Shown here piece after piece: positions 2,397 through 43,759 of a DNA stretch of 60,037 nucleotides. The notes beneath the pieces are model-generated. The model saw nothing but the letters and a program-made list of their open reading frames with translations. It had not been told where the DNA came from and did no database searches. The translations under genes and the position numbers were made by a program. Each line of letters starts with the position of its first letter. Within the stretch, counting starts at the first letter, position 1. Location of the stretch: the IMG/VR virus record IMGVR_UViG_3300030085_002970, positions 1 to 60,037 of that record; one strand, 5' to 3'. This DNA is from a virus. Its lineage: Duplodnaviria; Caudoviricetes.

Positions 2397-2864
2397 TTAA
2401 TCGTAATCTATATATTCAATTGTTACTTCTTCTCCTTGTTCTATCGCTTTTGCAATACTAGGATAAATCCTTTTATAAGCGTTAACACTTTTACCGATAA
2501 ATCCATCTGGTAGAAGTTGGTTGTTTTCTTGCGAGTCACCCACCAATAAACACCCAGCGGTATGCTCGTCAGTATTTCCAGTGTGTATAAGAATAAACTC
2601 AAAGTTAGGAACATCAGTGACATGTAACATACCACGATGTATACCAGGATATTTTTTAGTATATCTTTCATGAAAACCACCTTCTTTTCTTAATTCTATA
2701 TTGTATACACCAGCAGGTACTCTAGTTTCTCCTCTAACTTTCAAAGCTCTACGCTCATCTTCAAGTGTATAACAAAGAAACTTTTTACCCATATCTGTTT
2801 CTTCAAAAAGCAAACCGTGTGTTGAATCTGCTTCTGAACTAAATCTTAATACTTTTAATTTCAT
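2397..2864 (-). CDS. DUF5675-family protein (L,D-transpeptidase-like His/Cys), candidate endolysin
   Basis: CYTLED, RVPAGVY and ILIHTGNTDEHTAGCLLVG motifs. Confidence 0.75.
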   Translation of the reverse strand: MKLKVLRFSSEADSTHGLLFEETDMGKKFLCYTLEDERRALKVRGETRVPAGVYNIELRKEGGFHERYTKKYPGIHRGMLHVTDVPNFEFILIHTGNTDEHTAGCLLVGDSQENNQLLPDGFIGKSVNAYKRIYPSIAKAIEQGEEVTIEYIDYD

Positions 2865-2871
2865 AATTTTT

Positions 2872-3588
2872 TTAATAAGTTCCTGGCGCTGGTATGTTTG
2901 TTACAGTTACACCATTTGCAAAACCAGTTGTATTGCCACCTAGCATTTGGTTTATAAAAGCATATTTTACAGTGCTATAATTAGGCTCAATTGGGCCTCC
3001 ATTAGGACCACCAGTAACATAACCTACATTAAACAAATTACCTTGACCATCAAAAAGTAAAATATCTTGATATATACCTAAATCAGGATCAGGAGTAAAA
3101 GTGTATGTAGCGGAAGTTGTTCCATAATAAACAACTCCAGTTGTAGGTGACGCAGCAGGATTAGGAGGCGCCGCCGCTGCTTGAGCCATAGCCTCTGCTA
3201 AACCACTATAATCTCCTCCCATATACCAAGGTAATCCAGTTTCAGGATCTATATTAGCAGTTTCACTTCTTGCTGTCATTGGTTGTTGGGCTAACTGTCT
3301 TGGTGTTAATTTTGGTATAGCGCTTTGTTGATTTAATCTATAATCTCTTAATATAGAGCTAGATGTAATATATTGTCCTTTATCAAGTATTCTTTTAGGT
3401 AAAAAATGACTAACGCCAGCACCCATAGCTCTTGATATATCTTCATGGTTAATACCACCCATATAACCATTAACACCTTTAATAGTATGATGATGATAAC
3501 CTTTTAGCCCAAACTGAGTAGCAAATATAACAGCCTCCATAGGCGTACTGTAAACTGGTATTCCGCTTATAGAACCTATAACACTCAT
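2872..3588 (-). CDS. Hypothetical protein with a His/Gly-rich N-terminal domain
   Basis: 238-aa ORF; GYHHH..GYMGG motif followed by an Ala/Pro linker and a beta-rich C-terminus. Confidence 0.6.
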   Translation of the reverse strand: MSVIGSISGIPVYSTPMEAVIFATQFGLKGYHHHTIKGVNGYMGGINHEDISRAMGAGVSHFLPKRILDKGQYITSSSILRDYRLNQQSAIPKLTPRQLAQQPMTARSETANIDPETGLPWYMGGDYSGLAEAMAQAAAAPPNPAASPTTGVVYYGTTSATYTFTPDPDLGIYQDILLFDGQGNLFNVGYVTGGPNGGPIEPNYSTVKYAFINQMLGGNTTGFANGVTVTNIPAPGTY

Positions 3589-5969
3589 TGTTTTATTATT
3601 TTTACACTAATTATTGCGTTTTTATATTCAATTATCAAATTATATATACCAGGAGTTATTTTAGATACATTTAAAGAATTAATATCCTTTTTGCTAACAA
3701 CAATATCTCCTAGCAAGTTAACTAATTTAACGTTAACTTTTTTACTTATATATATATAGTCACTTGTAGGGTTAGGATATGTAATTAAACCACTTCTAAG
3801 CTCTAATAAATTTGTAGGTCCAGACCAACCATCTTGACAATATTCATATAAGCTCACACAAGTATTATCCCATTCTACATCACAGCAATATTCGTCAATA
3901 TCTATTACCCAAGCAAAGCAAGGATTAGGAAGAGTATATATATCACCAACAGCGCAACCAGCTGAGTATTCACAGGTCGAGTCAGGTACATTAACAAGCG
4001 GATCGTAGTTAATAGCAGTCGGATCATTACAGCCATAAATAGGATAAATGCAGCTACCATTATCAGTGTTTGCATCATCATCATAGTTAAGTGCGGTGCT
4101 ATCAGTACATCCATAATAATATTCAATACAACTTCCATTATCAGTATTACAAGTATCGCAGTAATTCCACATTGTAGGATCAATACAACCAAAAACTACT
4201 GGCATACAACTACCATCATCTGTATTTGCAGATGAGTTATAATTAAAGGCTACAGGGTCAGTGCAGCCCCAAACAACGGGTATGCACGAGCCGTCGTCTG
4301 TATTCGCTAATATATTATAGTTAAAAGCTGTACTATCAGTACAACCTAATACAACATCAATACAAGAGCCATCGTCAGTATTAGCTAATAAATTATAGTT
4401 AATTGCTAAAACGTCAGTACAGCCATAAATAAAAGGTATACAAGTACCATTATCAGTATTTGCTAAAACATCATAATTATACATTGTTGAGTCTATGCAA
4501 CCATATACGAACGGTATACAGCTACCGTTATCAACATTAGCATTTGCATTATAATTAAACATTGATGCATCTGTACAACCATACACTACAGCTATACAAC
4601 TTGAATCTTCTACATTTGCCAAAGGATTATAGTTAAGCGCTGTAGGGTCTGTACAACCTAAAACAGGTAAAACACAAGAGTTATCATCTGTGTTAGCCAG
4701 TGAATCATAATTTATAGCTATAGGATTAGTACAACCTTCTATTACAGGTATACAACTTCCATCATCAACGTTAGCGTTAGGATTATAATTAAACGCTAAA
4801 GAGTTCATACAGCCTTCAATAACTTCAATGCAAGAGCCTTGTATTTCAACATTAGCGTTAGGATTATAATTTAAAGCAGTAGAATCCATACAGCCAAGCA
4901 CAATTAAAGTGTTACAACTTCCATCGTCAAAATCAGCTGCAGGATTATACTCCAAATATATAGGGTTTGTACAACCCGCTAAGTAGTAACAAGTACTATC
5001 ATCAGTGTTAGCTAAGTAATCGTAGTTTAAAGCAGTTGTATCTGTACAACCATAAACTTTTTCAATACAATTATTACCACAATAAGGTTCTCCTGTTACA
5101 GGGAAAAATGGTGGTATAGGATTTACAAAACCACCTTCAATATCTATAGCTACATAATCTTCAGAATATAAACTATAACCACACTGCACAGCTGTAAAGT
5201 CTGATTGTTGTGTTATTTCAAACACTGCTCTAACAGGATAACCTGCTGCTAAGTTAACAAAGAACGTAGTATCAAAACCATCTATTAAAGTATAAGTTCC
5301 GATGTCTTGATAATTAAACGGTGGTAACAAGCTTGTTGCTTGTGATAGTTTTAAACTAGATCCAGCCCAACCGTTACCAGCTAAATCTGTTAATTCTAAC
5401 TCATGCATACAGCTATCTATATTTATATCTGTATTAGCTGAGTCTAAATAATTATATGCTAGTGAGTCTGTACATCCGTATACTTTTGGTGTAAAACACA
5501 TACCAGTGTCTAGTGTAGCTGCTATATCAAACTCTACATAACTAGGGTCCATACAACCAAATACTGGTGGTGGTGGAGGACAACCTGAAGTATATATTGT
5601 ATCATACATTTGATAACCAAAGTCAGCTATAGGCAACTGCCATATAGTATCACCACATTGTTCTATATATACAGAACCATCATTACCACCCCATAAACTA
5701 CCTGCTACACCATCGCCATAGGCGTCATTAATGACAAAATAAAAACTATCAACAGGCGCACAAGCCGCAGCATATTGTGGTTCGTAATCTATAATACCTG
5801 TATAAGGACCACCTTGCATTAATGTATCACCAAAGAAAGTCATTATATACCAAGAAGTTTCTTCTGGATACTGATCAGGATTTATTGTAACATTTAAACT
5901 CCATGTACCAGGAGGACATTGAGCAAAAGCAATATTAAATAAAAATAGAAATGTAATTAATCTTTTCAT
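3585..5969 (-). CDS. Secreted Cys/Asp-rich repeat protein with a T9SS (Por secretion) type-A C-terminal sorting domain
   Basis: Sec signal MKRLITFLFLFNIAFA|Q; 16 GCxDxxAxNY...DDGSC units; C-terminus YPNPTSD...NLLG...PGIY...KIIKQ. Confidence 0.85.
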   Translation of the reverse strand: MKRLITFLFLFNIAFAQCPPGTWSLNVTINPDQYPEETSWYIMTFFGDTLMQGGPYTGIIDYEPQYAAACAPVDSFYFVINDAYGDGVAGSLWGGNDGSVYIEQCGDTIWQLPIADFGYQMYDTIYTSGCPPPPPVFGCMDPSYVEFDIAATLDTGMCFTPKVYGCTDSLAYNYLDSANTDINIDSCMHELELTDLAGNGWAGSSLKLSQATSLLPPFNYQDIGTYTLIDGFDTTFFVNLAAGYPVRAVFEITQQSDFTAVQCGYSLYSEDYVAIDIEGGFVNPIPPFFPVTGEPYCGNNCIEKVYGCTDTTALNYDYLANTDDSTCYYLAGCTNPIYLEYNPAADFDDGSCNTLIVLGCMDSTALNYNPNANVEIQGSCIEVIEGCMNSLAFNYNPNANVDDGSCIPVIEGCTNPIAINYDSLANTDDNSCVLPVLGCTDPTALNYNPLANVEDSSCIAVVYGCTDASMFNYNANANVDNGSCIPFVYGCIDSTMYNYDVLANTDNGTCIPFIYGCTDVLAINYNLLANTDDGSCIDVVLGCTDSTAFNYNILANTDDGSCIPVVWGCTDPVAFNYNSSANTDDGSCMPVVFGCIDPTMWNYCDTCNTDNGSCIEYYYGCTDSTALNYDDDANTDNGSCIYPIYGCNDPTAINYDPLVNVPDSTCEYSAGCAVGDIYTLPNPCFAWVIDIDEYCCDVEWDNTCVSLYEYCQDGWSGPTNLLELRSGLITYPNPTSDYIYISKKVNVKLVNLLGDIVVSKKDINSLNVSKITPGIYNLIIEYKNAIISVKIIKQ
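3970..5052 (-). repeat. 14 tandem ~26-aa (~78-nt) GCTD..A.NY...ANTDDGSC coding repeats; two more copies lie further toward the N-terminus
   Basis: Counted directly in the translation; boundaries approximate. Confidence 0.85.
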
Positions 5970-6115
5970 TAGTAATCTTTATATTTTCTAATTTCTTTTC
6001 TAGCTTCTTTAGTAAGCTTGCCTTGTTTTTTTAACTCTTTTCTAGCTTTTCTTTTTGCTTTACGCAACTCTTTATTACCAAACAAAGCTAGTGGACTTTT
6101 CATTTTAAATGCCAT
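5969..6115 (-). CDS. Small basic protein, 48 aa, absent from the ORF track
   Basis: Translated by hand: MAFKMKSPLALFGNKELRKAKRKARKELKKQGKLTKEARKEIRKYKDY. Fills the gap and is TAATG-coupled to the next gene. Confidence 0.75.
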   Translation of the reverse strand: MAFKMKSPLALFGNKELRKAKRKARKELKKQGKLTKEARKEIRKYKDY

Positions 6116-6117
6116 AA

Positions 6118-6462
6118 CTAAAACTTACTTATTATTAATTCGTCTATATATTCTTGTATTTCTTCTCTAGTAGCTTGCATTTTAAAACTAAGATCTGCTT
6201 GATAACGTTTTACTTCTTCACCATCATCAAACACAATGATAGTAGGTACGATAGCAATAGAATATTTAGCTTGTACATCTCCATCATCAATGCTTAAACT
6301 TTTTTTATTAGCATCAGATAATTTATTAAACCACTCAACATCATTAGCTGAGTTCCAACCTGCGTTGAAGTGTACTACCTTTACTTGACTGAAAGCTGTA
6401 GCTGCTGTAAACACTAATATCATAATTAGCGCGTACAAATATTTTGCTATACACACTTTCAT
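6118..6462 (-). CDS. Exported thioredoxin-fold protein lacking CxxC
   Basis: Signal peptide ending AFS|Q; VVHFNAGWNSAN in place of FxAxWCGPC; cis-Pro motif IVPTIIVF. Confidence 0.7.
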   Translation of the reverse strand: MKVCIAKYLYALIMILVFTAATAFSQVKVVHFNAGWNSANDVEWFNKLSDANKKSLSIDDGDVQAKYSIAIVPTIIVFDDGEEVKRYQADLSFKMQATREEIQEYIDELIISKF

Positions 6463-6737
6463 TATCTTAACTGATCAATCTTATCTTCTATACGTCTGAT
6501 GTCTTCTTTTATTTCTTTAACATCTTCTTGTGTAGTCATAATAGTTTGTCGCACGTTTTGATCTTTCATATCAAACTCCATACGAGTAATATCAGGTTTA
6601 GGAAGTTCTTTAGCTTCAGATATATCTGCTTGTAACGCAAACCACATACCTATAATTGTAGCCATACCAAAACCTATAGCTATTAATGTCTGTATACTAA
6701 CTTTAAAGCTTGTATTTTCATTTAATTCTTTTGCCAT
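6462..6737 (-). CDS. Single-TM membrane protein with a C-terminal coiled coil (start re-called at MAKELNE)
   Basis: TM segment LIAIGFGMATIIGMWFAL, then heptads VKEIKEDIRRIEDKIDQL. Confidence 0.65.
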   Translation of the reverse strand: MAKELNENTSFKVSIQTLIAIGFGMATIIGMWFALQADISEAKELPKPDITRMEFDMKDQNVRQTIMTTQEDVKEIKEDIRRIEDKIDQLR

Positions 6738-6741
6738 TGTA

Positions 6742-7026
6742 TTATTTTTCACCGCATTTTTTGCTTGGATTACTTACTTGTACCCAGTTTTCTTTTCTAA
6801 ACCAATCACGTAAAGTAGCACCTTTTTTACGAGCACCTTTAACATTGCTTTTACTTGATCTTTTATATTTACCGCCTTTTGCAGCTTTACGTTTAGCGCG
6901 CACGACGCTAGCCCGTTCTGAAGCAGACATGCTACGAACTTTAGCAGCGGGCAGACACACTTTTTTTGTACCTCCGCCCTTTACTTTGCTACGCTTTTTA
7001 AGCGGTGAGATCAATTTAAAAGACAT
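6742..7026 (-). CDS. Small basic protein
   Basis: MSFKLISPLKK start, CLP and LRDWFRKENWV; very K/R-rich. Confidence 0.65.
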   Translation of the reverse strand: MSFKLISPLKKRSKVKGGGTKKVCLPAAKVRSMSASERASVVRAKRKAAKGGKYKRSSKSNVKGARKKGATLRDWFRKENWVQVSNPSKKCGEK

Positions 7027-7030
7027 AGTC

Positions 7031-7306
7031 TTACTTCTTTTTCATTTTCATAGCTGCTTTGCCTTTCATTTTCATAGCTGAAGCTTTTTTCATCTTCATT
7101 GCAGCTTTTTTCATCATCATAGTTGAATCTTTTTTAAGCTTCATAGCTGCTTTCTTCATTTTCATAGCAACACCTTCTTCTTTACCAGCTTTCTCTAAGA
7201 TAGCTTTAGCCATTTTAATAGATCCAGCATTTACTTTTTTCATAGCAGATTTTTTCGCCATTTTCATAGGCGCTTTTTTCGCCATTTTCATTGGTCCCTT
7301 TTTCAT
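7031..7306 (-). CDS. Lys/Met/Ala low-complexity histone-like protein (start re-called at MKKGPMKM)
   Basis: Repeated KKA(A/P)MKM units; the ATG at 7306 lies just after the PAP2 gene stop. Confidence 0.7.
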   Translation of the reverse strand: MKKGPMKMAKKAPMKMAKKSAMKKVNAGSIKMAKAILEKAGKEEGVAMKMKKAAMKLKKDSTMMMKKAAMKMKKASAMKMKGKAAMKMKKK

Positions 7307-7307
7307 T

Positions 7308-7850
7308 TTAAATTTTGTTTTTAATGTGGTTATACATTTCTTTACCAAGGTTTTCGCCCATTTTACTATCAGACTTATAGTGCGCATGAGCGACATTGCG
7401 ACTATAAGATATATTTTTTGCAGCTTTAGCAAAAGCTGATTTTGCTTTAGGATGTTTATCACCTAACACTTTAGCTATTAAAACTCCTTGTGTCGAATGA
7501 CCTGAGGGATATGAAGGTGTTTTCATGGAATCCATTTCAATATCATCCATTTTTATATTTAATTTTTTTGCCATTGATTTTGGCCTTGGTCTATTAAAGT
7601 GTTTTTTTAAATCGAGTATTATAGGTGCAGATTTTTTTATTAAATTTGCAACTAGTTTAGGATCGTAATCTTCAATATTTTTCTTTTTAGCAACTTTTTT
7701 AAAAACCGCTTCTATATCATCGTTTTCTTTGACAAACTTTCTACTCATTGGTATTTTAGTAAGCTCTTTAACTTCTTGCATAGTAGTAAAAGAACTATTA
7801 CTTGGTGGTTTTTTCTTTTTAAAAGAAGATATGTTAAAATCTTTAAACAT
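7308..7850 (-). CDS. PAP2 / haloperoxidase-superfamily phosphatase
   Basis: All three motifs present: KKHFNRPRP, PSYPSGH, SRNVAHAHYKSD. Confidence 0.8.
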   Translation of the reverse strand: MFKDFNISSFKKKKPPSNSSFTTMQEVKELTKIPMSRKFVKENDDIEAVFKKVAKKKNIEDYDPKLVANLIKKSAPIILDLKKHFNRPRPKSMAKKLNIKMDDIEMDSMKTPSYPSGHSTQGVLIAKVLGDKHPKAKSAFAKAAKNISYSRNVAHAHYKSDSKMGENLGKEMYNHIKNKI

Positions 7851-8301
7851 TTTTTCTTTGAGCTTTTAATCTTTTTTTAGCAGCTTTAGCTAGCCTTGCT
7901 TGTTCCATTTTACCCATAACCTCAGCTCTTTGCTCTAATACTGTTAGTATTTGTATTTTACGAGCATAAGGTTTATTTATTTTCATTACTTTAGCTATTG
8001 TTTTTCTAGCATCAGCAACAGTAGCAAACTTAATGCTTACTGTATCTTTTGGATTTTCATCAGTATACAACCTTCTATCAGAACCTTTTGGTTTTTTACC
8101 TGTACCAACTTTAGGATCTGCTTTCTTTTTTTTAGGTGAAGGTCTATTTGTTTGCATATTTATAAACCAGTTACATAGTTGTTTATCTCTTGGTGTAGCT
8201 CCAGGTCTAGCTTTTAATTTTTTACATTTATCTATAGTTACATCACCACCATAGATCTTAGCTATTCTAGCTTTCAATACGCCTCTATACGCCTTACTCA
8301 T
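7843..8301 (-). CDS. Basic hypothetical protein
   Basis: 152 aa, K-rich; GTGKKPKGSDRRLYTDENPKDTV. Confidence 0.65.
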   Translation of the reverse strand: MSKAYRGVLKARIAKIYGGDVTIDKCKKLKARPGATPRDKQLCNWFINMQTNRPSPKKKKADPKVGTGKKPKGSDRRLYTDENPKDTVSIKFATVADARKTIAKVMKINKPYARKIQILTVLEQRAEVMGKMEQARLAKAAKKRLKAQRKNV

Positions 8302-8644
8302 TGCCTTTTTTACCTAATCTTTTTCTAACAATGTTCATTGTAGTTTTCATTTTAGCCGCATAGCTAGGATTTTTTTTACGGTTAAAAACTACTTGCTGGT
8401 TTAAACTACTGATAATTCTAGATAAATTACCTTTACGAGATTTAATAAGCCAACTAGCTAAACCTGAAGGTGACAAGCTTTTAAACTTACCTTTTGCATC
8501 AGGAGCATCAGACTCTTTAAACTCACCCATGCGTTTTTTATTAGGCGAAACTTTAACGCAGCTTCCTTTGCTAAAGCGAGTTGTTCCAGGTTTTCTTTTA
8601 TAACCTTTCCAACACTTTAATGGGCTTTTCATTTTAAACGCCAT
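8294..8644 (-). CDS. Basic hypothetical protein
   Basis: Starts MAFKMKSPLKCWKGY..GSCVK. Confidence 0.65.
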   Translation of the reverse strand: MAFKMKSPLKCWKGYKRKPGTTRFSKGSCVKVSPNKKRMGEFKESDAPDAKGKFKSLSPSGLASWLIKSRKGNLSRIISSLNQQVVFNRKKNPSYAAKMKTTMNIVRKRLGKKGNE

Positions 8645-8811
8645 TATTTTTTCTTTTTACTTTTACCCATTTTACCTGGTCCACCAGCTCTAGTACATCT
8701 TACACCCCAACCTGAAGCATAAGCACTAGGCCAAACCTTAAACTTACGTTTTGCTGCTGTTTTACAAGCTGCAGAAATTTTTTTTAATGCTGAACTTTTT
8801 TGTACTTTCAT
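8644..8811 (-). CDS. Small basic protein, 55 aa, absent from the ORF track
   Basis: Translated by hand: MKVQKSSALKKISAACKTAAKRKFKVWPSAYASGWGVRCTRAGGPGKMGKSKKKK; TAATG-coupled. Confidence 0.7.
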   Translation of the reverse strand: MKVQKSSALKKISAACKTAAKRKFKVWPSAYASGWGVRCTRAGGPGKMGKSKKKK

Positions 8812-8815
8812 AATA

Positions 8816-9196
8816 TTAACATTTCCATCTGCGTCTAGCAGCTAAACCTCGTTTACTTTTCCAACTTCTTGATCTAGCGCAGAACGATTTTCTTCTTTTT
8901 GCGTCTTTACTTCCTGGTTTAACTTTTCCTGTTACAGCAGTTTTAAGTTTACTTCCAGGGTTTTTACGTCTATATTCTCTAACTCCCTTAGAAGTCATCC
9001 CAGCACCCTCTTTGATAGTTCTAAAGTTACGACCTTTACCTTTAGTAGTTTTTCTTGGTTCGTTAGTCTTTTTACGCTTACGTTTTTGCATAGGTGAATC
9101 TTCATCTGATAATTTAAAACCAGACAGTATTCCGCCAGCTCTTCTTCTACCACAAGAAGTTACAGGTATTGGATGATTTTTTTGCGTATAAGCCAT
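8816..9196 (-). CDS. Basic protein, DUF6321-like
   Basis: GMTSKGV..YRRKNPGSKLK..RRKSFCARS..RRRWKC. Confidence 0.6.
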   Translation of the reverse strand: MAYTQKNHPIPVTSCGRRRAGGILSGFKLSDEDSPMQKRKRKKTNEPRKTTKGKGRNFRTIKEGAGMTSKGVREYRRKNPGSKLKTAVTGKVKPGSKDAKRRKSFCARSRSWKSKRGLAARRRWKC

Positions 9197-9198
9197 GA

Positions 9199-10242
9199 TT
9201 AAAAGATTACATAATTAACACCACACTTAAAGTCATACCACTCGCGATTCCAGTACTTGTTGTATTTACCTTCAACAAATAAACCTAAGTGTTTATTAAA
9301 CTTGTATCCAAGTATTAATCCGCCAGAATAGTCATACCATTGACCATCTATAAAATTATGATAAGAATACTCTCCTCCACTATCGTAATGGTACGGCATG
9401 AAATTACCCCACGAGTGCAACCAAAAATCTTTTTTATAATGATAATAATCAAAACCTAAAACTACTGAGTATTGAAACTGATTATCTAATTCATTACGTT
9501 TTTTATTTACGTAATCTTCTAATATTTGAGGTATAATAACTTCTTCCCAAACAGCACTACTTGTAGCAACTACGTCGCCTGCTGGGTTTTTATATTCATT
9601 TTCAAATACATCTATACTATAACCTTCTTGTATTGCTAGTTGTGTATAATGTATATAGTCGTTTTCTAGCTTCCACTCTGTTAGCGGGTCAAAGCCATAA
9701 GGCTCTGCAAGTCTTGTAACACCGCCAAAATTAAAAGATAATTTCTTTTTACCACGTAATCTAAATCTCTGTGTAGCTTCGTAATACTCTATATCTGCAA
9801 AACCGTCTTTAACATACTCTACTTTAGTAAGCCATTTATTTCTTACATATCTTACGAAATGTTGTTGATCAAAGTACTCTACGCCTTCTTGTCGTTTATA
9901 GTCTACTTCAAATAAATATTCAAACGGTGATAAACCAACTGTAGCAGCATCGCCATAAGCAGATTCAGTACCATCTTTGAAAGGAGTACTACCTTCGTAT
10001 TGAAAACGTTTTATTTTACGTATACCCATTGTTAACGAATAATCGTATGGCGTAAATACAGTATCGTAACTTAGCACACCTTGGCTTGTAGAGTATACAT
10101 CTCTATCAGCTAAAGATGTTCCACCATTTGCCGCTATGTAAAACGTAGAAAACTTAAACGCTTTTTTAATTTGTGAGCAACACTCTTTAGGAGCTGTACA
10201 CGCTGTTATGAACGCTATTAATATTATTATTATTTTTTTCAT
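9199..10242 (-). CDS. Predicted outer-membrane beta-barrel / lipoprotein
   Basis: Signal with lipobox-like ITAC; aromatic-rich alternating strands; ends GVNYVIF (terminal Phe, BAM-like signal). Confidence 0.6.
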   Translation of the reverse strand: MKKIIIILIAFITACTAPKECCSQIKKAFKFSTFYIAANGGTSLADRDVYSTSQGVLSYDTVFTPYDYSLTMGIRKIKRFQYEGSTPFKDGTESAYGDAATVGLSPFEYLFEVDYKRQEGVEYFDQQHFVRYVRNKWLTKVEYVKDGFADIEYYEATQRFRLRGKKKLSFNFGGVTRLAEPYGFDPLTEWKLENDYIHYTQLAIQEGYSIDVFENEYKNPAGDVVATSSAVWEEVIIPQILEDYVNKKRNELDNQFQYSVVLGFDYYHYKKDFWLHSWGNFMPYHYDSGGEYSYHNFIDGQWYDYSGGLILGYKFNKHLGLFVEGKYNKYWNREWYDFKCGVNYVIF

Positions 10243-10243
10243 T

Positions 10244-13200
10244 TTAAATGTCTAAAAAATATGGTTCTTTTTTCTTTTTCTTTTTCTTCTTTTTCTTTGT
10301 TTCTTCTTTGATCTTTTTCATTTTTTCATTTTCAAGATCTAAGTTGTATTGACTCCAACCAAAAAACATCATTACTCTTTCAAGCGCAGAGTGCTCTTTG
10401 TTTAGAGATTGTCTAATGTTTTGAACTTTATTGTAAGTTTTATTTAAAGGTATATTTACAAGCTCAAAGTAACTAGTCACAGCTGGCCATATAGGATTAT
10501 CTATATCAGAAAGCTTCATGTGATCTATAACCTTTTCATTATAGTTTAATGTTTTTTCAGCAGCAACTATTCTTCTAGCTTTAATACCAAGAGGTGGAGA
10601 TATGTCTAAAGCAGCTCTTAAAACAGCGCTTTCATCTTTGTTGTATTTTACATCTCTTTGTTTGTCCCATTGTATAGCCATATTTTTAACAGTAGCGGCT
10701 ATTGCTCCGTAAACACCCGTACCTCTTAAAACACTATCAATAGCACCGTTAACTGCATATTCAAACTTTTTGCCTCTACTTTTTTCTTCTTTTTCAGTTA
10801 ACTCTTCTTCATCGTCAAACATAGCCATAAACAAAGCTGTTTGTAAACTATAGAATACCATGTTTTGTATGCCTATGTAATAAGTTAGTCTAGCTAAGTT
10901 TGAAACGTCACTTTGAAACTGATTATCGTAAGGAGGTGTTATTCTTCTATTTTTTAAATCTAAAAATGCTTTTTTACCTAGTCTATTAAACTGTGATGTA
11001 ACATTTTGAAAAGCAAGTACAAACTTACCTACAGCAGATCTTTGTTGAGCAGAAATCATATCTTCTCTAGCTGACTGCTGTGTCGATTGTGTTATTTCAT
11101 TAAAATCGTTAAAAGCTTTTAATTCTGCTTCTTTTTGGCTAAGACCTTCTTTTATATACTTGTTAGTTCTATTTCTATAATAAGTAGCACCACCCGTTGA
11201 TATTGCAACACTATCAGCTATTTGTGTAGGAGTAAAACCTGCAGCTAAAAGTTTTTGTATAATTACACGCATTGGAAACCTAGATCTACTAGCCGTTTGA
11301 ACTAGCTCAGCAGCATTAACATCTGTTCTTATACCACCTCTTCTTTGCTTTAAAGTGTCAGAGTTAAATATAAATACCCAATCAGCCCAGTATTGTTTTT
11401 GATTAGCAAATGCTTTAGCCATTGCAAACAAATTGTTATCAGCAAAGTTCATGTAGTTAACAATAGACATCTGCTGTAATAAAGCTGATCTCATGTTAAG
11501 AAACATAACGGTACCTACTGCTCCATTAATAAAGTTTACAAATTGATTTACAATTTTATTTTGACCTTGAGGTCTTTTTTCACCAGTTCTTATAGAATAA
11601 AGCATATCTTCTATAGATTCTCTAACACTTTTACCGTAAGCAGCTTCAATTTTATTTAAATTATCTTTTGAAAATATTTCATTAGAATTTTCTATAAATT
11701 CAGTAAAATATTGAGATCTACCAATTTTACCAGTAGCATCCATGAGATCTGATCGTAAACTACCAATATCCCAAGATTCAGTAGGCGGTATATAACCATC
11801 TACTCTTGATATACTTTCTATAGAGTTAGCATAGTTTTGCAATACAGGATCAAGAGTAACATATTCGTTTAACATATCTTGATCTTTTTTGCTAAGACCT
11901 GGTATTTCATGACCGTTTTTAGTCCATATATAAACTCTTATAGCATCTTCAAAAGTAAAATCACCATCAGCAGTATTCTTTTTTAACTTTTTCTTTATAT
12001 CTGGATAATTTTTATTTAAAGCTTTAAAGTCATTAGCTATAGATTGCATTGCTGTGTCTAATTCTTTATAAGCTCTATTTAAAGGTTTTATTAAAGCTTT
12101 TTCAAAAAAGTCTCTATGTTTATCACCTTTTCTACCTTTACCCATAAAGTTATATAATAGACCTACAAAATCCTCATGCGATGGTGGTATAAAAAATCTA
12201 AACTTACCTTTATCAGAACCACGTTTTCTAGCTTTTATATCACTAAATCTTTTTTCAGACTCTATGCCTGTAACTTCTTCAATTATTTTATTAAAGTCTT
12301 GATCTAAGCTTCTACTAAAATTAATTTTAGCTTGTACAGATTTACCTTTAACATCTAGCTGATCAAATACTTCTTGTACGGCTTTAACGTTAGGCAACGC
12401 GTCATCAACAAAATACATGTCATTATAACCTTCTGAATATTTATCTAACATCCATAAAGCTTTTGCTTCTCCAGTGCTATTACCTAAACCTGTTATATTT
12501 TCTAACGGTATGTTTATACCTTTAGACTTTAACCATTCATGTATAGGTTGCGCAGCTTCTTGCATGCGAGCAGTAAGTACAAATACATTTTTATTTCCGT
12601 ATTTAGCTATTTGGTTTTTCATTTTTTGTAATAACGGCCCTTCTTTTCCACCTCTTACATTAACAAAATCAGAAAAATCAAAGTCCCAGTTTTCTTCAGC
12701 ATACCTTGGACCGTCAATAGGCCATTTAGCAGATGGTATTTTAACTGTTTCACCATCTTTAGTTGCTGTTACAAAGTTTTTACCTTCTATAATTAGTGTT
12801 TCATCAAAATCAAAAGTAGACATGCCTCTTGAAGGCTTTAAACTGTTATCTCTTGCTTTTACCAGTTTTCTAGAGTTTTGTATTTTTAACTGTGAATTTA
12901 ACGTAGTTTCTGTAGATTTTATAAAACTTTTAGTTTGCGAAGCGTCTAGTAAGTTTGCTTTACTATCAACAAACTTAAATTCATTTATTCTAGGTGATAT
13001 TCTATACTTTATCTTACCTTTTTTTGGTCTATCTATCCTAGCTACAAGCTCTATTGTTTCGCCTTCTTTTAACTTTAATCTTTGTATTTTATTGTTTGGA
13101 TTTAAGCGGTTAAATTCAGCAGCTACAGCATTACTAACTTTATCAACATTTTCATTACCTGTTGTCATTACATAAAGTTTTTGTCCAACCTGAACAAAAC

Positions 13201-16200
13201 CTTGAGGCATTTTACTATATTTTCCATGAGCATAAGCCCAAGAAAAATAATCTCCATCTATGTTTGTGCTAGTAGAGTATTTACTTTTATTATCATTTAA
13301 CCAACTAGCTTGAGCGTCTGTTAACTCATTACCATTTTTTATTTCACCTAAACCAGCTTTTTTTAAATCTTTAGATATTTGATTATATTGATCTTTAATT
13401 AAATCACCTATAATATCATCATATAAAACACCATCTTGATTAGCTGTTTCATTTTTATTAGCAAAAGTTAAATTTCCGTTAGATAAAAAGTTTATTGTTT
13501 GTGAAACTCCTCTAGCTATATCTAGCTTAGATTCAACGCCAACAACTATATTATTTAAAGCAACATATATATCACCTTTACCTTTCTTTAATTGTAAAGC
13601 AGTATTAGCAATAGCTTTTTTAAACATAGATTTTATTCTATATTCAAGCGCTAAACCTAGATTTATTTTTTCTCCAGGCTTACTTTTTTTAACTATTTTT
13701 GTAACTAAATCTTGCTTTAACTGCTCATCTTTTAACTCACCATACTCGTTAGCTTGATGCATTTTATATATTATTTCAGCAGCTTTATTTTTGTCTGAGT
13801 TAGAGTATTCTCTACCACCTTTTTCATATCTTTTCTTAAAAGGTATTTTTAAAGAATATTTAGCTTTACCTTTTTTGTCATACTCTATTGATACTATGTT
13901 TTCTAATTTAGTTTTGCCAGTGGCTAGCTTAGAAAGCTCATCAAGTACATTATCAGCCAAGCCATCTATAATTTGAGTTCTAGAAAACATTATATTAGAC
14001 TCTCTACCTATTGCAGCTGCTAACTCTTGTATTTCAGCTTCATAACTAACACCGTCGTCTTCTATCCTACTTCTGACTTCTTCGGACTGTCTAGCTTCCA
14101 TAGTAGCATCTTTAATAAGAGTAATACCTAAAGCTTTAACAAAACCATCTTTTCTAGTTCCTTTTAAACCAGATCTTTCACCTGTTTCAGGATTTATAGC
14201 CGGTTGATCAGCAAATTCAACTAGTTCAGGTTCTGTAGGTATTCTTCTTTTATAAAGATTTACAGCTTGTCCTTGATCAATTTTGTTTAAAGCATCAAGA
14301 GGTAATTGTTCTTTTCTAACGGCATCTTCAACTTCTTTTTTACTTGTAAGTTGTTTTACGAAAGTAGTAAATTTTCTTTTGTCTTCAGGAACTTTTCTTT
14401 CCATTTGAACTAAATCAGCTACAGATATAGTATTAAACATAGCTTCTCTATGGAGCTTCAAGTTCTTTATATAAGGCTTAGCACCAAAAAAGTTTTTTAG
14501 TGGCTTAAAAACATCGCTAGTAAGACTAAAATACTCTTTACGTAACAACTCGTCTATAGCTTTAGCTCTTTTTGACGGATCTTTTATATTCTGAGTTTTA
14601 CGATACGCTATAACAATTGACTTTTTTATAGAGTTAAGTATTGTGCTATACATATCTCCTCCAGTTTCAAAGCCTAATGCTTTTCTAAGCTTAGACTGCT
14701 TGACTTCTTGTTCTTGACCTGTTTGTTCTTTTGTTTTTCTTTGTCTAGCTCTAGCAGCGATAGATACATCTTCTTCTTCAAACTGCTCTATTGAAGCGTC
14801 TGTTTCAGCTTCAACTTGTATTTTTAGCTCACCTTCTTCTGTTCTTTCACCTATTTCTTTAGCTCTAGATACTTCGTCTGCTTTGTACTCTCTGTTATAG
14901 ACATTACCAGCTTTATTAGCTATTTGAGAATTAATCCAACCAAACAAACTATCATTAGTTTCAGGATTAAAGTTTTTAATATGTGGAGTAAGCTCTGCTA
15001 CTACTTTGTCAATAAATTCTCTTGGAGCACGACCTCCTTTATATTTTGCCGCAATTAAATTATCTAAATAACCTTTATTTTTTATTTCTGTTATTATCTG
15101 ATCTACTTCGGCATCGTAGTAAAACTTACCAACATCTTTTTCTCTAAAACTATTACCAAGCTCTGACTCACTACCTAGTTTGTCAATAGCTTGTTTAGAA
15201 AACTTTATGTCAGCATCATCTATAGTAAAATCTTGTTTACTTACAAACTCTTGTATTTCTTTTCTATATATACCTTTTTTAGAGTCGGCAACCATAGCAT
15301 CTAAAAAAGCTTTAGTATCTGCACCTGTTTCAAAGTTTACTTTTTTAAACTCTGTTTCAGTTCTAAATAAATTAGAAATAAATTGACCTACTTTACTAGT
15401 TGGTTCAAAAGCTCCTTGTTTAGATAATTGCGCGTAAAAGTTTAAATATTCTTCGCCATACTCTTTAAACTCTTTTCCAGTTCTATATCCACCTTTGTCT
15501 AGCACTTCCTCTATGAGCTTTTTTTCATTATTACTTAATGTTTTTATAAAATCTTTTACAATTAACTCACCTTTTTCGCTTAAATTACCGTCTTTACCTT
15601 GAACAGTTGTTTTTAATAAACCATGTAAAACTTCATGTATACCTATACCAATAGCGTTGTTTTGAGCAGCAACCTCTGCGTTTATCATTAGCTTACCACC
15701 AATCTTTAAACCGTCAATTTGAAAACCTTTAGTAGTTTTTTCAAAGTCTGCTTCTGTTTTACCTTTAGCTAACATTTCAGTTTTTAAAGCATCAAGAAAC
15801 TCAGCTTCAGTTCTAAATACTTGTTGCTGTAGATTTTTAACATTTTTAATTAAGCTACCAGTGCCATCAAGCTCTTCCATTAGCAAGCTCATATTAGCAT
15901 CGTTCTTAATACTAATAATACCATCGTTATAACTTCTTTCTCTTTGTTTTAAAGTAGACTCTAAAGCTTTAAACTCTTGTTCACTTATTAAACCTTTGTT
16001 AAACAAAGATTTAGCTTCTTTTATTTCTTTTCTAGTTTTTCTTATGTTGCTTAAAAGATTATTTAAGCCATCTTCTTGCTTAGTACTTAAGTACTCTGAT
16101 AATTTACTATTTTGAGCTAAAAACTCATTTAAATCTTCTTGCTGTGCTTGAATTAAATCATCATATTTTTTTTGTTCTTTTATGCTAGTAGTTCTTGCCT

Positions 16201-17557
16201 TTGCTTCAAGAAGTTCTTCTATGTTTTTAACTTTTTGAGCTATAAATCTACTACTTGACTCATCAGCTCTTAAAGCAGCGTTTATTTTTCTACCTCCAGC
16301 TGTAAGAGCGCCACCACCAATTAAACCTGCAAAATACTGATCCCAAGCTTCTTCACTACCCATATAGCTACCTACGTCTTTTATAGCATCTTCAAAAGAC
16401 ATTTGTTTACCTATATTTTGGTTCATACGCTCTATTAAACCTTGACCATACTCAGTCCAAGCTTCTTTTTGACTAGCAGCCAAAAGACCAAAGTAACCTC
16501 TTTTTTTAAAAGATTGTTTGGCTATTTCTCTAGTAATACCTTTAAAACCAGCTCTTTCTAAAGCAAAACCTAAACCACCAAATAAAAGTGGTAAACCTAA
16601 TTCGTCTTCACCATTTTCTAATAATTTTTGAAAACCATCAGGATCGTCACCATACAAAGCTTTAGCCTTTTCTTCGTTAAAAGACATATATGACATACCA
16701 CCCATTTGAAGAGCCATAGAAGTACCAAAGGTAAGCCTAGCGGCTGCAAACTGCATAGCAGCGTCTGTAACAAAGTTTAAACCTTGTAGAAAAGTATCGC
16801 CAACTCTTCCGTTTTTTACAGCATCAAGAAATCCTTTGCTATCTGTTATTGGAAGTTTGGCTATTTTAGCATTAAGTTCAACATTTTTTTTATGAACTTT
16901 TAGTAGTTCTTCTTTATAAAGATCATCAATCTTTTTTCCGTTTTCATCTACTAAGTAAACAGGATTTTCAAACTTTCTAATTGAACCATCATCTGTTATT
17001 TCATATATAGGAAACGAAGCTCTTTTTTTCAATAGCTTATAATACTCAGCGTTTTCAGGAGCGTCATGACCATCTCTTTTGTGAGCTTCTCTATCAAAAC
17101 TAACAGTTTTTCCAGTTTCAGAGTCATACAAGCCTTCTTGTTTAGTTCTAGCATCTCCTGCTCTAAAAAAATTAAGAAAACCGTCAGTATCGTTTAAAGG
17201 ACTAGTATCAACTACGTTTGTCATGAACTCAGAAGTTGGCGTAATTGCAGAATCAAAAAAAGCATTAAGAAAACCTGTTGCTTGATTTACTTTTGATTCA
17301 GTAGCTGGTCCTAAATGTTGTTTAAACATATTCATAAGACCTTCAAAAAAACCAACTTCATCTTCTACTTCTTCGTCAGTTAAATCTAAATCAATACCAC
17401 CACCTAATCTTTGTCTTGGTGAAATAACTGGTTTTGGAGGTTCTGTAGAGTCTTCTAGTTTTTTTGCATCAGGATATGCAGCTAAAAACTCTTGCAACTT
17501 GTCTGATGAAACATCAAATACCTCACCTGTATTAGTATTAATATACTGTTCTGCCAT
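10244..17557 (-). CDS. Giant (2437 aa) putative internal virion/ejection protein with HExxH, PD-(D/E)xK-like and HAD motifs
   Basis: Lies after the tail genes. Motifs IHEVLHG; GLALEY..KGDIYV..VESKL; TFDFDETL..VLTAR..K..FVDD. Confidence 0.7.
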   Translation of the reverse strand: MAEQYINTNTGEVFDVSSDKLQEFLAAYPDAKKLEDSTEPPKPVISPRQRLGGGIDLDLTDEEVEDEVGFFEGLMNMFKQHLGPATESKVNQATGFLNAFFDSAITPTSEFMTNVVDTSPLNDTDGFLNFFRAGDARTKQEGLYDSETGKTVSFDREAHKRDGHDAPENAEYYKLLKKRASFPIYEITDDGSIRKFENPVYLVDENGKKIDDLYKEELLKVHKKNVELNAKIAKLPITDSKGFLDAVKNGRVGDTFLQGLNFVTDAAMQFAAARLTFGTSMALQMGGMSYMSFNEEKAKALYGDDPDGFQKLLENGEDELGLPLLFGGLGFALERAGFKGITREIAKQSFKKRGYFGLLAASQKEAWTEYGQGLIERMNQNIGKQMSFEDAIKDVGSYMGSEEAWDQYFAGLIGGGALTAGGRKINAALRADESSSRFIAQKVKNIEELLEAKARTTSIKEQKKYDDLIQAQQEDLNEFLAQNSKLSEYLSTKQEDGLNNLLSNIRKTRKEIKEAKSLFNKGLISEQEFKALESTLKQRERSYNDGIISIKNDANMSLLMEELDGTGSLIKNVKNLQQQVFRTEAEFLDALKTEMLAKGKTEADFEKTTKGFQIDGLKIGGKLMINAEVAAQNNAIGIGIHEVLHGLLKTTVQGKDGNLSEKGELIVKDFIKTLSNNEKKLIEEVLDKGGYRTGKEFKEYGEEYLNFYAQLSKQGAFEPTSKVGQFISNLFRTETEFKKVNFETGADTKAFLDAMVADSKKGIYRKEIQEFVSKQDFTIDDADIKFSKQAIDKLGSESELGNSFREKDVGKFYYDAEVDQIITEIKNKGYLDNLIAAKYKGGRAPREFIDKVVAELTPHIKNFNPETNDSLFGWINSQIANKAGNVYNREYKADEVSRAKEIGERTEEGELKIQVEAETDASIEQFEEEDVSIAARARQRKTKEQTGQEQEVKQSKLRKALGFETGGDMYSTILNSIKKSIVIAYRKTQNIKDPSKRAKAIDELLRKEYFSLTSDVFKPLKNFFGAKPYIKNLKLHREAMFNTISVADLVQMERKVPEDKRKFTTFVKQLTSKKEVEDAVRKEQLPLDALNKIDQGQAVNLYKRRIPTEPELVEFADQPAINPETGERSGLKGTRKDGFVKALGITLIKDATMEARQSEEVRSRIEDDGVSYEAEIQELAAAIGRESNIMFSRTQIIDGLADNVLDELSKLATGKTKLENIVSIEYDKKGKAKYSLKIPFKKRYEKGGREYSNSDKNKAAEIIYKMHQANEYGELKDEQLKQDLVTKIVKKSKPGEKINLGLALEYRIKSMFKKAIANTALQLKKGKGDIYVALNNIVVGVESKLDIARGVSQTINFLSNGNLTFANKNETANQDGVLYDDIIGDLIKDQYNQISKDLKKAGLGEIKNGNELTDAQASWLNDNKSKYSTSTNIDGDYFSWAYAHGKYSKMPQGFVQVGQKLYVMTTGNENVDKVSNAVAAEFNRLNPNNKIQRLKLKEGETIELVARIDRPKKGKIKYRISPRINEFKFVDSKANLLDASQTKSFIKSTETTLNSQLKIQNSRKLVKARDNSLKPSRGMSTFDFDETLIIEGKNFVTATKDGETVKIPSAKWPIDGPRYAEENWDFDFSDFVNVRGGKEGPLLQKMKNQIAKYGNKNVFVLTARMQEAAQPIHEWLKSKGINIPLENITGLGNSTGEAKALWMLDKYSEGYNDMYFVDDALPNVKAVQEVFDQLDVKGKSVQAKINFSRSLDQDFNKIIEEVTGIESEKRFSDIKARKRGSDKGKFRFFIPPSHEDFVGLLYNFMGKGRKGDKHRDFFEKALIKPLNRAYKELDTAMQSIANDFKALNKNYPDIKKKLKKNTADGDFTFEDAIRVYIWTKNGHEIPGLSKKDQDMLNEYVTLDPVLQNYANSIESISRVDGYIPPTESWDIGSLRSDLMDATGKIGRSQYFTEFIENSNEIFSKDNLNKIEAAYGKSVRESIEDMLYSIRTGEKRPQGQNKIVNQFVNFINGAVGTVMFLNMRSALLQQMSIVNYMNFADNNLFAMAKAFANQKQYWADWVFIFNSDTLKQRRGGIRTDVNAAELVQTASRSRFPMRVIIQKLLAAGFTPTQIADSVAISTGGATYYRNRTNKYIKEGLSQKEAELKAFNDFNEITQSTQQSAREDMISAQQRSAVGKFVLAFQNVTSQFNRLGKKAFLDLKNRRITPPYDNQFQSDVSNLARLTYYIGIQNMVFYSLQTALFMAMFDDEEELTEKEEKSRGKKFEYAVNGAIDSVLRGTGVYGAIAATVKNMAIQWDKQRDVKYNKDESAVLRAALDISPPLGIKARRIVAAEKTLNYNEKVIDHMKLSDIDNPIWPAVTSYFELVNIPLNKTYNKVQNIRQSLNKEHSALERVMMFFGWSQYNLDLENEKMKKIKEETKKKKKKKKKKEPYFLDI

Positions 17558-42946: not shown

Positions 42947-43224
42947 TACTTTGATCTGCCTTCCGCGAAACCTTTAAATACTCTTTCTTCTTTTTCTTCA
43001 GGTGTCTTTCCTTCCAAAATATTTTCTTCTTCTTGTACGCGGTTGAGTATTTCAAATGCATCAAATATAGCTAGCTTTTTAGTAGCCGCAGCATTTTTTA
43101 GTCGATCAGCAGATACATCATCTTCAGTGTTAGTGATAATTTGTTCTTCCGCAACTTTAATCAACTCATCAACCGCTTTTCGCCCAGCTAGGATTATACG
43201 CTTCTTCGTTTCCTTGATACTCAT
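42946..43224 (-). CDS. Putative terminase small subunit
   Basis: Small helical protein TAATG-coupled to terL; call is positional. Confidence 0.45.
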   Translation of the reverse strand: MSIKETKKRIILAGRKAVDELIKVAEEQIITNTEDDVSADRLKNAAATKKLAIFDAFEILNRVQEEENILEGKTPEEKEERVFKGFAEGRSK

Positions 43225-43759
43225 ATTTAATTGTAATAAATTTATTCATAACCCTATAAAGCCTTGTATCATTAATAATAAACTCATAGGTTGAAAATGG
43301 TGTAAAGCCTACTAGCTCTTCTTTTTTATAAACTCCGTCAGTATATTTAACTATACCAATACAGCCTTCTTCTTCTCCTACAGCTAGCTTGTTTCTTTGT
43401 TTTATAGGTTGTACAAAACAATAACCACTACAAGCTTTCCACTCATCTTTTGACTTATATAGATATATTTGATCTTCTTTAACTAAATACGTATTTTCAT
43501 TAAAAAAAGATCTACTATTTTTTTCTTTACCTTTTACATCGTGCCACCTTCTAAAAACATTGTGATGAACAATAACTTCATCATTTTTGCTTATACAAGT
43601 TTCAAATGCTGTTGGTGTAGACTTAACAATAGCGTGACGATTTATGAACTCGTGATTAAATATCTCTGTATTTAATATTAGTTCTTTATCACCAACTTTT
43701 TTACTATTATTATATCTACTACCTTTTGGTTCTATAACAAAATCAAAAGGCGCCTTCAT
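43169..43759 (-). CDS. Divergent GroES-like (possibly tandem-domain) protein
   Basis: MKAPFDFVIEP..AIVKSTP..DEVIVHHNVF, then a second unit CFVQPI..GIVKY..ELVGF. Confidence 0.45.
   Translation of the reverse strand: MKAPFDFVIEPKGSRYNNSKKVGDKELILNTEIFNHEFINRHAIVKSTPTAFETCISKNDEVIVHHNVFRRWHDVKGKEKNSRSFFNENTYLVKEDQIYLYKSKDEWKACSGYCFVQPIKQRNKLAVGEEEGCIGIVKYTDGVYKKEELVGFTPFSTYEFIINDTRLYRVMNKFITIKYEYQGNEEAYNPSWAKSG

Follow-up and report, generated by a model that had tools for sequence, protein, structure and literature searches.

Can a bacteriophage send a protein of its own to the outside of the infected cell through a Bacteroidota host's type IX secretion system (T9SS)? The question is raised by a gene at positions 3585-5969 of the IMG/VR virus record IMGVR_UViG_3300030085_002970, which was analysed over its whole length of 60,037 bases (the window) and which CheckV rates as 100% complete. 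The 794-residue product of this gene, here called the cargo, had been read in an initial annotation as phage-encoded freight for the host T9SS, a core claim that is well supported by sequence and by structural modelling. We put the probability that the gene is a genuine phage-borne substrate of the host T9SS at roughly 0.75 and, going by the sequence, the infected cell probably secretes or displays this phage protein. As a kind, phage T9SS cargo is already in print, in two earlier reports (PMC7468147; PMC6949934); what is new here is how the protein is built, a cellular origin for its stalk, the occurrence of a linked gene trio independently of the cargo, and a model-based lead, as yet unproven, to docking of the cargo onto a member of that trio.

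Export signals and phage origin of the cargo gene

Both defining sequence features of T9SS type A cargo, viz. a Sec signal and a C-terminal sorting domain (CTD), are present in the protein. The signal peptide, read from the sequence, consists of MKR, a 12-residue hydrophobic core and the predicted cleavage site AFA|Q, just where the initial annotation had placed an ending of the A|Q type. Of the 120 best homologues, 116 retain a hydrophobic N-terminus, the other four being truncated open reading frame (ORF) calls; these 120 are the best of more than 6,000 protein clusters that match the cargo at E≤0.001, many of which may match through its repeat alone. The strict pattern small-x-small|Q is found in 95 homologues, and the other 21 show [AGS]-Q by eye. 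A glutamine at +1 agrees with the ‘Q-rule’ described for substrates of signal peptidase I in Bacteroidota (Bochtler 2018, PMC5837995).

The CTD occupies the extreme C-terminus. It is matched by PF18962 over residues 731-792 (31.6 bits against a cut-off of 27) and by the type A model TIGR04183, the check originally proposed, over residues 731-794 (27 bits against 23), while a six-frame search of the window finds a CTD once only, at 3594-3779, with 36.6 bits. No type B CTD model appeared at E≤1 in the NCBIfam scan, which listed TIGR04183 and a weak NF052644 match. Type A CTDs have conserved motifs resembling PxGxYVV and KxxxK. The cargo CTD shows YPNP, G.Y and a terminus that is basic and K..K-like, and [YF]PNP stands within the last 110 residues of 117 of the 120 homologues. 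PF18962 was matched at E≤0.001 by 23 of the 27 phage homologues scanned and, according to precomputed annotation, by 104 of the best 120.

Structural modelling gives moderate support for a CTD fold. An AlphaFold 2 (AF2) model of residues 640-794, built on an alignment of 23 phage sequences, has a predicted local distance difference test score (pLDDT) of 84-89 over the CTD, and its top Foldseek matches in the PDB, 8glk_D, 8gl6_D and 8glj_D, are T9SS CTDs, those of NucA, RemA and FspA in complex with the translocon of Flavobacterium johnsoniae. The match to 8glk_D has E 2.7e-3, a target TM-score of 0.65 and a root-mean-square deviation (rmsd) of 2.5 Å over 65 columns, and 8glj_D shares 30% identity; PorZ (5m11) and the RgpB CTD (7pq4) are also among the matches, whose E-values run overall from about 3e-3 to 2e-2.

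Six exact peptide patterns retrieved cargo relatives in 38 viral contigs, and in these loci a gene order recurs that runs from a gene for a 347-residue protein through one for a 96-residue membrane protein and one for a 114-residue thioredoxin-like protein to the cargo, a variable stretch and a gene for a DUF5675 protein. The synteny in related viral contigs that had been suggested as a check was borne out in these contigs. The head of the protein (residues 18-306) is 85-95% identical in 22 loci, compared with 39-74% for the last 128 residues. When the cargo, the thioredoxin-like and the 347-residue proteins were compared by tblastn with 50,697 phage records, no match was returned.

Might the gene nevertheless be a functionless passenger, a host gene acquired by chance, or the product of mis-assembly? 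The repeat and one of the head domains, domain A, do have cellular relatives, and many spurious joints arise at the repeat region when short contigs are aligned there. Against this, the same architecture with the same neighbours recurs in the 38 viral contigs, which come from many samples, and none of 401 sampled Bacteroidota genomes, compared at E≤1e-10, showed the architecture in full. A contig from an independent marine DNA run spans positions 2800-3780, across the 3′ junction of the cargo gene, with 0 differences, and another independent metagenome contig spans the start codon with 10 differences; together with the synteny, the mismatch-free junction speaks against the chimeric host insertion that had been considered at the outset. 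The strong conservation of the head adds to this, and the explanation is largely refuted and in our view highly improbable. As far as sequence can tell, the cargo gene is genuine and under selection and is no assembly artefact.

The genome around it has a recognisable affiliation. PHROGs identify a large terminase (E 3.7e-175), a portal (6e-146) and three virion structural proteins in the window, and the genes so identified, among them GroEL- and GroES-like ones, share the minus strand with the cargo gene. The terminase matches 87 phage records, 86 of which take their names from Flavobacterium (68), Cellulophaga (15), Tenacibaculum (2) or Maribacter (1); its best match is the uncultured podovirus MW202828.1 (63%). 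These four genera possess a T9SS, and from the hosts of the cultured relatives we infer that the host in question has one too. Neither PF00589 (tyrosine integrase) nor PF00239 (resolvase) has a match in the whole 60,037-base record, although control genomes do match, in line with the earlier remark that no integrase was in view. The genome, which is of marine habitat, is on these sequence grounds podovirus-like, integrase-less and lytic-looking, and related to Flavobacteriaceae phages.

From the terminase to position 791 the genes follow in tight succession, with overlaps or gaps of a few bases. The cargo gene had been assigned to a late operon; its strand and the tight run of structural genes stand, the cargo gene being placed distally on that strand, and late co-expression with that run is plausible. 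Translational coupling on both sides, likewise proposed, fares similarly. The overlaps exist, ATGA at 3585-3588 and TAATG at 5969, and their geometry suggests coupling of the cargo gene. The partner at TAATG is a doubtful gene: this very basic 48-residue ORF has a tblastn match in just 1 of the 38 related loci (L028), for which reason it may be no real gene.

Several observations weigh against the reading of the protein as T9SS cargo. The CTD profiles score just 4 bits above their cut-offs, and the Foldseek E-values (about 3e-3) miss the 0.001 line; the latter are modest because the CTD is small, and their ranking agrees with the profiles. The likeness of the head domains to known folds is weak (Z below 8). 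The cultured relatives from whose hosts the T9SS is deduced share 45-63% terminase identity. PF18962 has no match in the relatives MW202828.1 and Flavobacterium phage elemoE 6-9C, and since the cargo is without a counterpart in cultured relatives it is dispensable for this type of phage. The sole RNA run with related sequence holds 0.05 of the sampled words, in contigs that are relatives of 90-95% identity; contigs of this run lie on the cargo gene (4876-5403) and on the thioredoxin-like gene, and are not counted as expression because DNA carry-over is possible. Finally, no experimental test of any phage T9SS cargo was found in the open-access literature.

Anatomy of the cargo and its cellular relatives

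The protein is built from two head domains, a stalk of cysteine repeats, a small cysteine-rich (Cys) module and the CTD (Table 1), and has 47 cysteines in total. Its repeat units have the form GC..(D/N)....N(Y/F)......C, and the 16 Cys- and Asp-rich repeats of the initial annotation were recovered as two units between the heads, preceded by a proline linker, and 14 in the stalk. Between 7 and 26 copies occur in each of the 120 best homologues. The Cys module, which a short linker separates from the CTD, contains six cysteines; its CCxxxWDxxC signature, also picked out at the first reading, falls at residues 695-704 and is found in 119 of the 120. Searched alone against Pfam at E≤10, the module listed no family. 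Some relatives have an additional N-terminal domain.

Table 1. Positions of the cargo gene, of the parts of its product and of adjoining genes in the window.
Feature	Positions	Strand	Remarks
Cargo gene	3585..5969	-	794 residues, ORF without stop; relatives in 38 viral loci
Sec-type signal peptide, residues 1-17, predicted cleavage AFA|Q	5919..5969	-	Read from sequence
Head domain A, residues 18-130, beta-sandwich, invariant D.YGDG..G motif	5580..5918	-	AF2 model
Two Cys repeats, residues 138-187	5409..5558	-	Pattern scan
Head domain B, residues 188-301, beta-sandwich	5067..5408	-	AF2 model
14 Cys repeats (stalk), 26-residue period, residues 307-666	3972..5051	-	Pattern scan
Cys module with CCxxxWDxxC, residues 671-717	3819..3959	-	Small, helical in AF2 model
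Predicted T9SS type A C-terminal sorting domain, residues 731-794	3588..3779	-	PF18962, TIGR04183, Foldseek
DUF5675 protein, 155 residues, putative endolysin	2397..2864	-	PF18925 91.4 bits
238-residue ORF, start overlaps cargo stop (ATGA, 3585-3588)	2872..3588	-	Poorly conserved
Very basic ORF, 48 residues, stop overlaps cargo start (TAATG)	5969..6115	-	Doubtful gene
Thioredoxin-fold exported protein without CxxC, 114 residues	6118..6462	-	Directly upstream of cargo in most relatives
96-residue protein, one N-terminal hydrophobic helix, coiled-coil-like charged C-terminal half	6462..6752	-	Hydropathy window, residues 16-34
Exported 347-residue protein, no known family	9199..10242	-	Signal peptide, 21% aromatic, ends ...NYVIF

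The AF2 model of the head shows two beta-sandwiches with a mean pLDDT of 77, for which Foldseek returned nothing from the PDB at E≤0.001. In wide VIA-align comparisons the best structural match of domain A was a Ca-dependent carbohydrate-binding module, 2xhh (Z 6.8, rmsd 3.9 over 96 residues), and domain B matched the PLAT/C2-like structures 1lox (Z 6.8) and 1olp (Z 6.7); these matches are weak, values of this size may reflect no more than a common arrangement, and no fold family is assigned to the heads. ESM Atlas searches with both domains led to unnamed, mostly viral clusters (scores 0.86-0.90). Neither an enzyme domain nor a membrane-active one was detected in the cargo with Pfam, NCBIfam or PHROGs, and the repeat has weak matches to PF25721 and phrog_2192, both families of unknown function. 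Because the heads resemble known folds weakly, the case for a binding protein is argued from architecture, which suggests a stalked, adhesin-like molecule.

Repeat-rich fibres and Ig-like domains are common on phages, and the cargo gene lies on the strand of the structural genes. ORFs with a T9SS tail near head genes have, moreover, been reported (de Jonge et al. 2019, PMC6949934), and the cargo might on these grounds be a tail fibre or decoration protein of the virion whose CTD-like beta-sandwich is purely structural. Such a role is very unlikely: the Sec signal, kept in 116 of 120 homologues, would take the protein out of the cytoplasm, where virions are assembled, its 47 cysteines would need an oxidising compartment, no structural PHROG family matches it (phrog_2192 alone does so, weakly and through the repeat), and the gene is absent from the cultured relatives examined.

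Seven of the 401 Bacteroidota genomes match the cargo, through the repeat array only or, in two of the seven, through domain A. The matching cellular ORFs are 679-5,840 residues long, and in all five that reach their C-terminus within the locus PF18962 is matched, preceded by subtilase, PKD or DUF5122 domains. As cellular ORFs with the repeat carry PF18962, the two-cysteine repeat is a stalk module of ordinary T9SS cargo. Cellular type A cargo of this sort (L039, L049, L051, L057, L058) shares with the phage protein the layout of a head, a two-cysteine repeat array and a PF18962 CTD, and differs from it in the heads. A scan of genome contigs with the exact peptide patterns found one Chitinophagales metagenome-assembled genome, through repeats and domain A only. 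The Cys module was met in one of the 401 genomes, as a marginal 29-residue match (E 8.5e-4), and the 347-residue protein in none; for both, the scarcity in cells means ‘not found in those searched’, which falls short of ‘absent’.

How does the protein compare with what has been described in other phages? Bellas et al. (2020, PMC7468147) reported genes with a type A T9SS sorting domain in metagenomic ‘Cryophage’ genomes on bioinformatic evidence, and proposed that the host system is hijacked by cargo which varies between phage variants. Cryophage cargo comprises an endoglucanase, a GH39 protein and a PA14 protein, whereas the present one has no detectable enzyme domain; Cryophage comes from glacier cryoconite and the present phage is marine, podovirus-like and of Flavobacteriaceae type; and an envelope trio adjoins the present cargo, of which the available part of that paper makes no mention. 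In gut phage lineages, de Jonge et al. described ORFs that carry a T9SS sorting domain and adjoin the head module, and left their function open; one of these also has a tandem repeat domain, the repeats of those phages being BACON repeats and not the two-cysteine ones found here, and neither a signal peptide nor a partner protein is claimed for them in the text available. Matrishin et al. (2023, PMC10367356) noted that Porphyromonas gingivalis phages encode proteins with no known function whose signal peptides expose an N-terminal glutamine, which they read as adaptation to the export machinery of Bacteroidota; those phages are temperate and infect an oral pathogen, and the main text of the paper uses none of the terms T9SS, ‘type IX’ and CTD. 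Further reports of phage T9SS cargo beyond Bellas et al. and de Jonge et al., or a description of the present cargo family or its trio, were not found in the open-access literature.

An envelope trio linked to the cargo

The trio, which is phage-only and occurs in hundreds of marine viral contigs, consists of the exported 347-residue protein, the 96-residue membrane coiled coil and the thioredoxin without CxxC. The 96-residue gene is conserved beside the other two. The 114-residue thioredoxin-like protein has a signal peptide with glutamine at +1, and nearly all of the 56 PDB chains listed for it are thioredoxins (best E 0.0031), a likeness that is weak and consistent; TIGR01068 matches at E 6.8e-4, its 19.8 bits lying below the cut-off of 96.8. 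Neither this protein nor any of 27 distinct homologues has the CxxC active site. In some cargo relatives (P0003, P0023, P0060, P0064; L001, L004, L005) the cargo signal peptide resembles that of the thioredoxin-like neighbour, being of the type M.(K/R)FTKF.YA.IM..VFT.AT.F[GS]Q instead of MKRLITFLF, a sign that the two genes may have recombined with each other at their 5′ ends.

For the 347-residue protein no family was found in Pfam at E≤10 or in NCBIfam at E≤1, and against the PDB its single sequence gave chance-level matches (E≥0.38) and its profile none. It is read as a likely outer-membrane barrel, solely because it has a signal peptide, contains 21% aromatic residues and ends in ...NYVIF. 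A beta-moment score did not separate the candidates, with 0.08 for this protein, 0.01-0.08 for soluble controls and 0.08-0.15 for PorP/SprF barrels. Assignment to PorP/SprF was tried and rejected: PF11751 does not match, and hhalign gave a probability of 6% against 16 members from 4 Bacteroidota genomes. The N-terminus is lipoprotein-like with a cysteine (..C..PK.CC[SG]Q) in the window and in 4 of 20 other aligned sequences and plain ..A|Q in the rest; the protein may, to judge by these sequences, exist in lipidated and non-lipidated forms.

Beyond the cargo lies the gene for the DUF5675 protein, 721 bases downstream. This protein is probably the endolysin, since the names given to phage homologues are L,D-carboxypeptidase/transpeptidase or peptidoglycan hydrolase. 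It contains H...(8 residues)..T.GC, which we take to resemble the catalytic motif of YkuD-type L,D-transpeptidases and which would fit the L,D-carboxypeptidase/transpeptidase label of a Pseudomonas phage homologue.

Cargo and trio are closely linked. The 347-residue gene is present in 28 of the 38 cargo loci, and in each of the 10 others no more than about 800 bases separate the cargo from the upstream end of the locus; the thioredoxin-like gene is present in 31. Seen from the partner's side, among the best 80 of at least 591 viral stretches encoding the 347-residue protein, a Cys-module ORF occurs in all 59 that have at least 5 kb downstream (53 downstream and 6 upstream of the partner gene), the remaining 21 ending early. 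One of these short loci, L066, is the only one of the 80 with the 347-residue gene followed directly by DUF5675, with no membrane protein, thioredoxin-like gene or cargo in 2.1 kb downstream and 7 kb upstream. The linkage survives changes of gene order, as in L027 and L028 and in the six loci with an upstream Cys-module ORF.

When cargo residues 640-794 were modelled together with residues 25-347 of the 347-residue protein, the interface score (ipSAE) was 0.63 (0.63, 0.66 and 0.62 in separate runs), compared with 0.00 for the controls (best of 3). For reference, 58 of 80 solved complexes and 2 of 110 mismatched pairs attain this mark, counts that hold only roughly, because alignments of our own were used. 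The runs agree in at least 80% of contacts, with a partner pLDDT of 76-77, and the predicted interface joins cargo residues 683-717, in the Cys module and not in the CTD, to partner residues 54-56, 192-214 and 229-233, invariant columns among them. The model supports docking of the Cys module onto the 347-residue protein without showing it.

Sequence covariation was consistent with this contact at first sight. Over 38 non-identical loci, partner identity tracks the Cys module (Spearman 0.72) above the physically nearer head (0.45), with a bootstrap difference of 0.28 (95% range 0.08-0.44) and a partial correlation of 0.63, and none of 2,000 label permutations reached the observed value. In a 27-locus subset in which six parts could be compared, the correlation of the 347-residue protein was 0.42 with the Cys module, 0.29 with the head, 0.32 with the CTD and 0.14 with DUF5675; here the covariation is less firm and no longer striking, and in all these figures shared descent is uncontrolled.

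Linkage, complex model and covariation together raise the possibility of a phage-built fibre, in which the Cys module, having become the new C-terminus once the CTD is removed, would dock on the 347-residue putative barrel, the host providing secretion and the phage the anchor. This would extend the reading as T9SS cargo, and we regard it as tentative. The drop of the covariation to 0.42 in the subset tells against it, as do the assumed nature of the barrel fold and its topology, the fact that the predicted contact could equally lie in the periplasm, and the partner's lack of likeness to PorP/SprF. The comparison with type B systems is instructive in this respect: there, CTD cargo is paired with its own shuttle or anchor of PorP/SprF-like type (Gorasia et al. 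2022, PMC9143113; Paillat et al. 2025, PMC12618676), and a cargo gene linked to an exported outer-membrane partner that sets its destination resembles the docking proposed here. The present CTD is however of type A, the partner shows no detectable PorP/SprF relationship, the predicted contact is made by the module before the CTD, and the partner also exists without cargo.

This last difference emerged from a profile search of the 347-residue family through 1.84 billion representatives, of which 392 matched at E≤0.001; two distant members were chosen, and these led to 87 viral loci of two distant clades. All three trio genes are present there, and the Cys-module profile, the cargo-family CTD profile and the module pattern found nothing in any of the 87 loci, 15 of which have at least 5 kb on both sides. 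In 4 of 7 loci of the P0259 clade, DUF5675 comes straight after the trio. Five whole viral records that contain the trio, 4 of them rated 100% complete, likewise gave no PF18962 match. The dependence is one-sided: where it could be tested the cargo never occurs without the trio, and the trio often occurs without the cargo, which fits docking and is no proof of it. As the trio occurs without cargo in other phage clades it should have a job of its own, probably connected with lysis, and for the same reason the conserved surface of the partner cannot have been kept for the cargo. The cargo is, by these comparisons of sequence, a clade-specific addition between the trio and the putative endolysin.

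A further reading, in which a fibre exported by the host T9SS plugs its Cys module into a phage outer-membrane protein to form a new surface structure on the dying cell, is rather doubtful; similarly speculative is the corollary that, through the added cargo, an envelope machine linked to lysis would come to anchor a long stalk that binds a ligand. A different use of the same neighbourhood, unlikely in our estimation, would be that the cargo has no binding role and is a lysis accessory acting with the trio on the outer membrane, or a jammer that occupies the translocon and shuttle late in infection and stops gliding and secretion. The position of its gene between trio and DUF5675 would suit this, as would the direct succession of trio and DUF5675 in the P0259 clade; yet the cargo is no core part of lysis, given that trio-bearing phages manage without it, a jammer has no need for a head kept at 85-95% identity or a stalk of 7 to 26 repeats, and no membrane-active or enzymatic domain was found.

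Surrounding genes and a possible role near lysis

Other genes of the window touch this picture at its margins. The 238-residue ORF at 2872-3588 has no family match. The region 5969-9196 (minus strand) is a block of small, extremely basic ORFs, of which those at 5969-6115, 6742-7026 and 8294-8644 share an N-terminal M[AS]FK..SPL and that at 8816-9196 matches DUF6321; the block has moved, since in L002 and L011-L013 it stands after DUF5675 and not between the 347-residue gene and the rest of the trio. At 7308-7850 (minus strand), a 180-residue protein matches the PAP2 phosphatase superfamily (29.2 bits against a cut-off of 27.2) and, weakly, the acid phosphatase PhoC, and a hydropathy scan of it found no membrane helix; a phage lipid or undecaprenyl phosphatase among envelope genes would be unusual.

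Further afield, all on the minus strand, are the GroEL-like gene at 47924-49486 (phrog_5725, E 5.6e-136) and the GroES-like gene at 43169-43759 (phrog_13932); in an elemo phage relative an annotated co-chaperonin also adjoins the terminase. Two giant ORFs of the structural module, at 10244-17557 (2,437 residues) and 22000-32094 (3,364 residues), together make up 29% of the genome, and three neighbouring paralogous ORFs of 140, 137 and 132 residues at 1099-2386, which start with MATT and have a common G[KR]LY[AG]GDW motif, gave no family match. The window yielded no tRNA genes and so no hint of the host from that side. A scan for sigma-70-type promoters, a consensus outside which Bacteroidota promoters lie, found 43 sites against 42.0 ± 6.6 in shuffled sequences, and 8 terminator-like sites were counted against 4.5 ± 2.0, none of them at a gene boundary of the cassette.

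Returning to the cargo as a T9SS substrate, the following course of events may be envisaged. The protein would be exported by Sec late in infection, and its cysteines would be oxidised in the periplasm, where disulfides form. The CTD would then be recognised by the host translocon and shuttle (SprA/PorV) and removed, and the stalked protein would reach the surface of the infected cell or the medium, where its conserved head would bind a conserved ligand. The company of lysis genes, the conserved head and the freely varying length of the stalk suggest that it acts outside the cell near lysis, by binding or masking. Our best guess is that it modifies or masks the exterior of the dying cell and of the debris left by it, at about the time of lysis, since the gene would be made with late and lysis genes and not with early ones. 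The lipoprotein Llp of phage T5, which masks the receptor on debris of lysed cells, offers a functional analogy. By the same argument from gene position, superinfection exclusion, one of the uses first envisaged beside adhesion, grazing avoidance and jamming, seems less likely.

What would this mean for the phages and their hosts? T9SS mutants and assays with reporter-CTD fusions exist for Flavobacterium johnsoniae, which makes the idea directly testable. The trio may represent a new outer-membrane step of lysis, and a cargo plugged into it, should that more doubtful arrangement exist, might mask receptors on cells and debris or tether the lysing cell to particles or to neighbouring hosts. The cargo family is common in marine DNA and concerns abundant flavobacterial phages of the ocean, an environment in which cell-surface properties govern attachment to particles and the turnover of polysaccharides. 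If the cargo does leave infected cells through the T9SS, it would clearly exemplify how a lytic phage alters the exterior of its host by means of a secretion system specific to one phylum.

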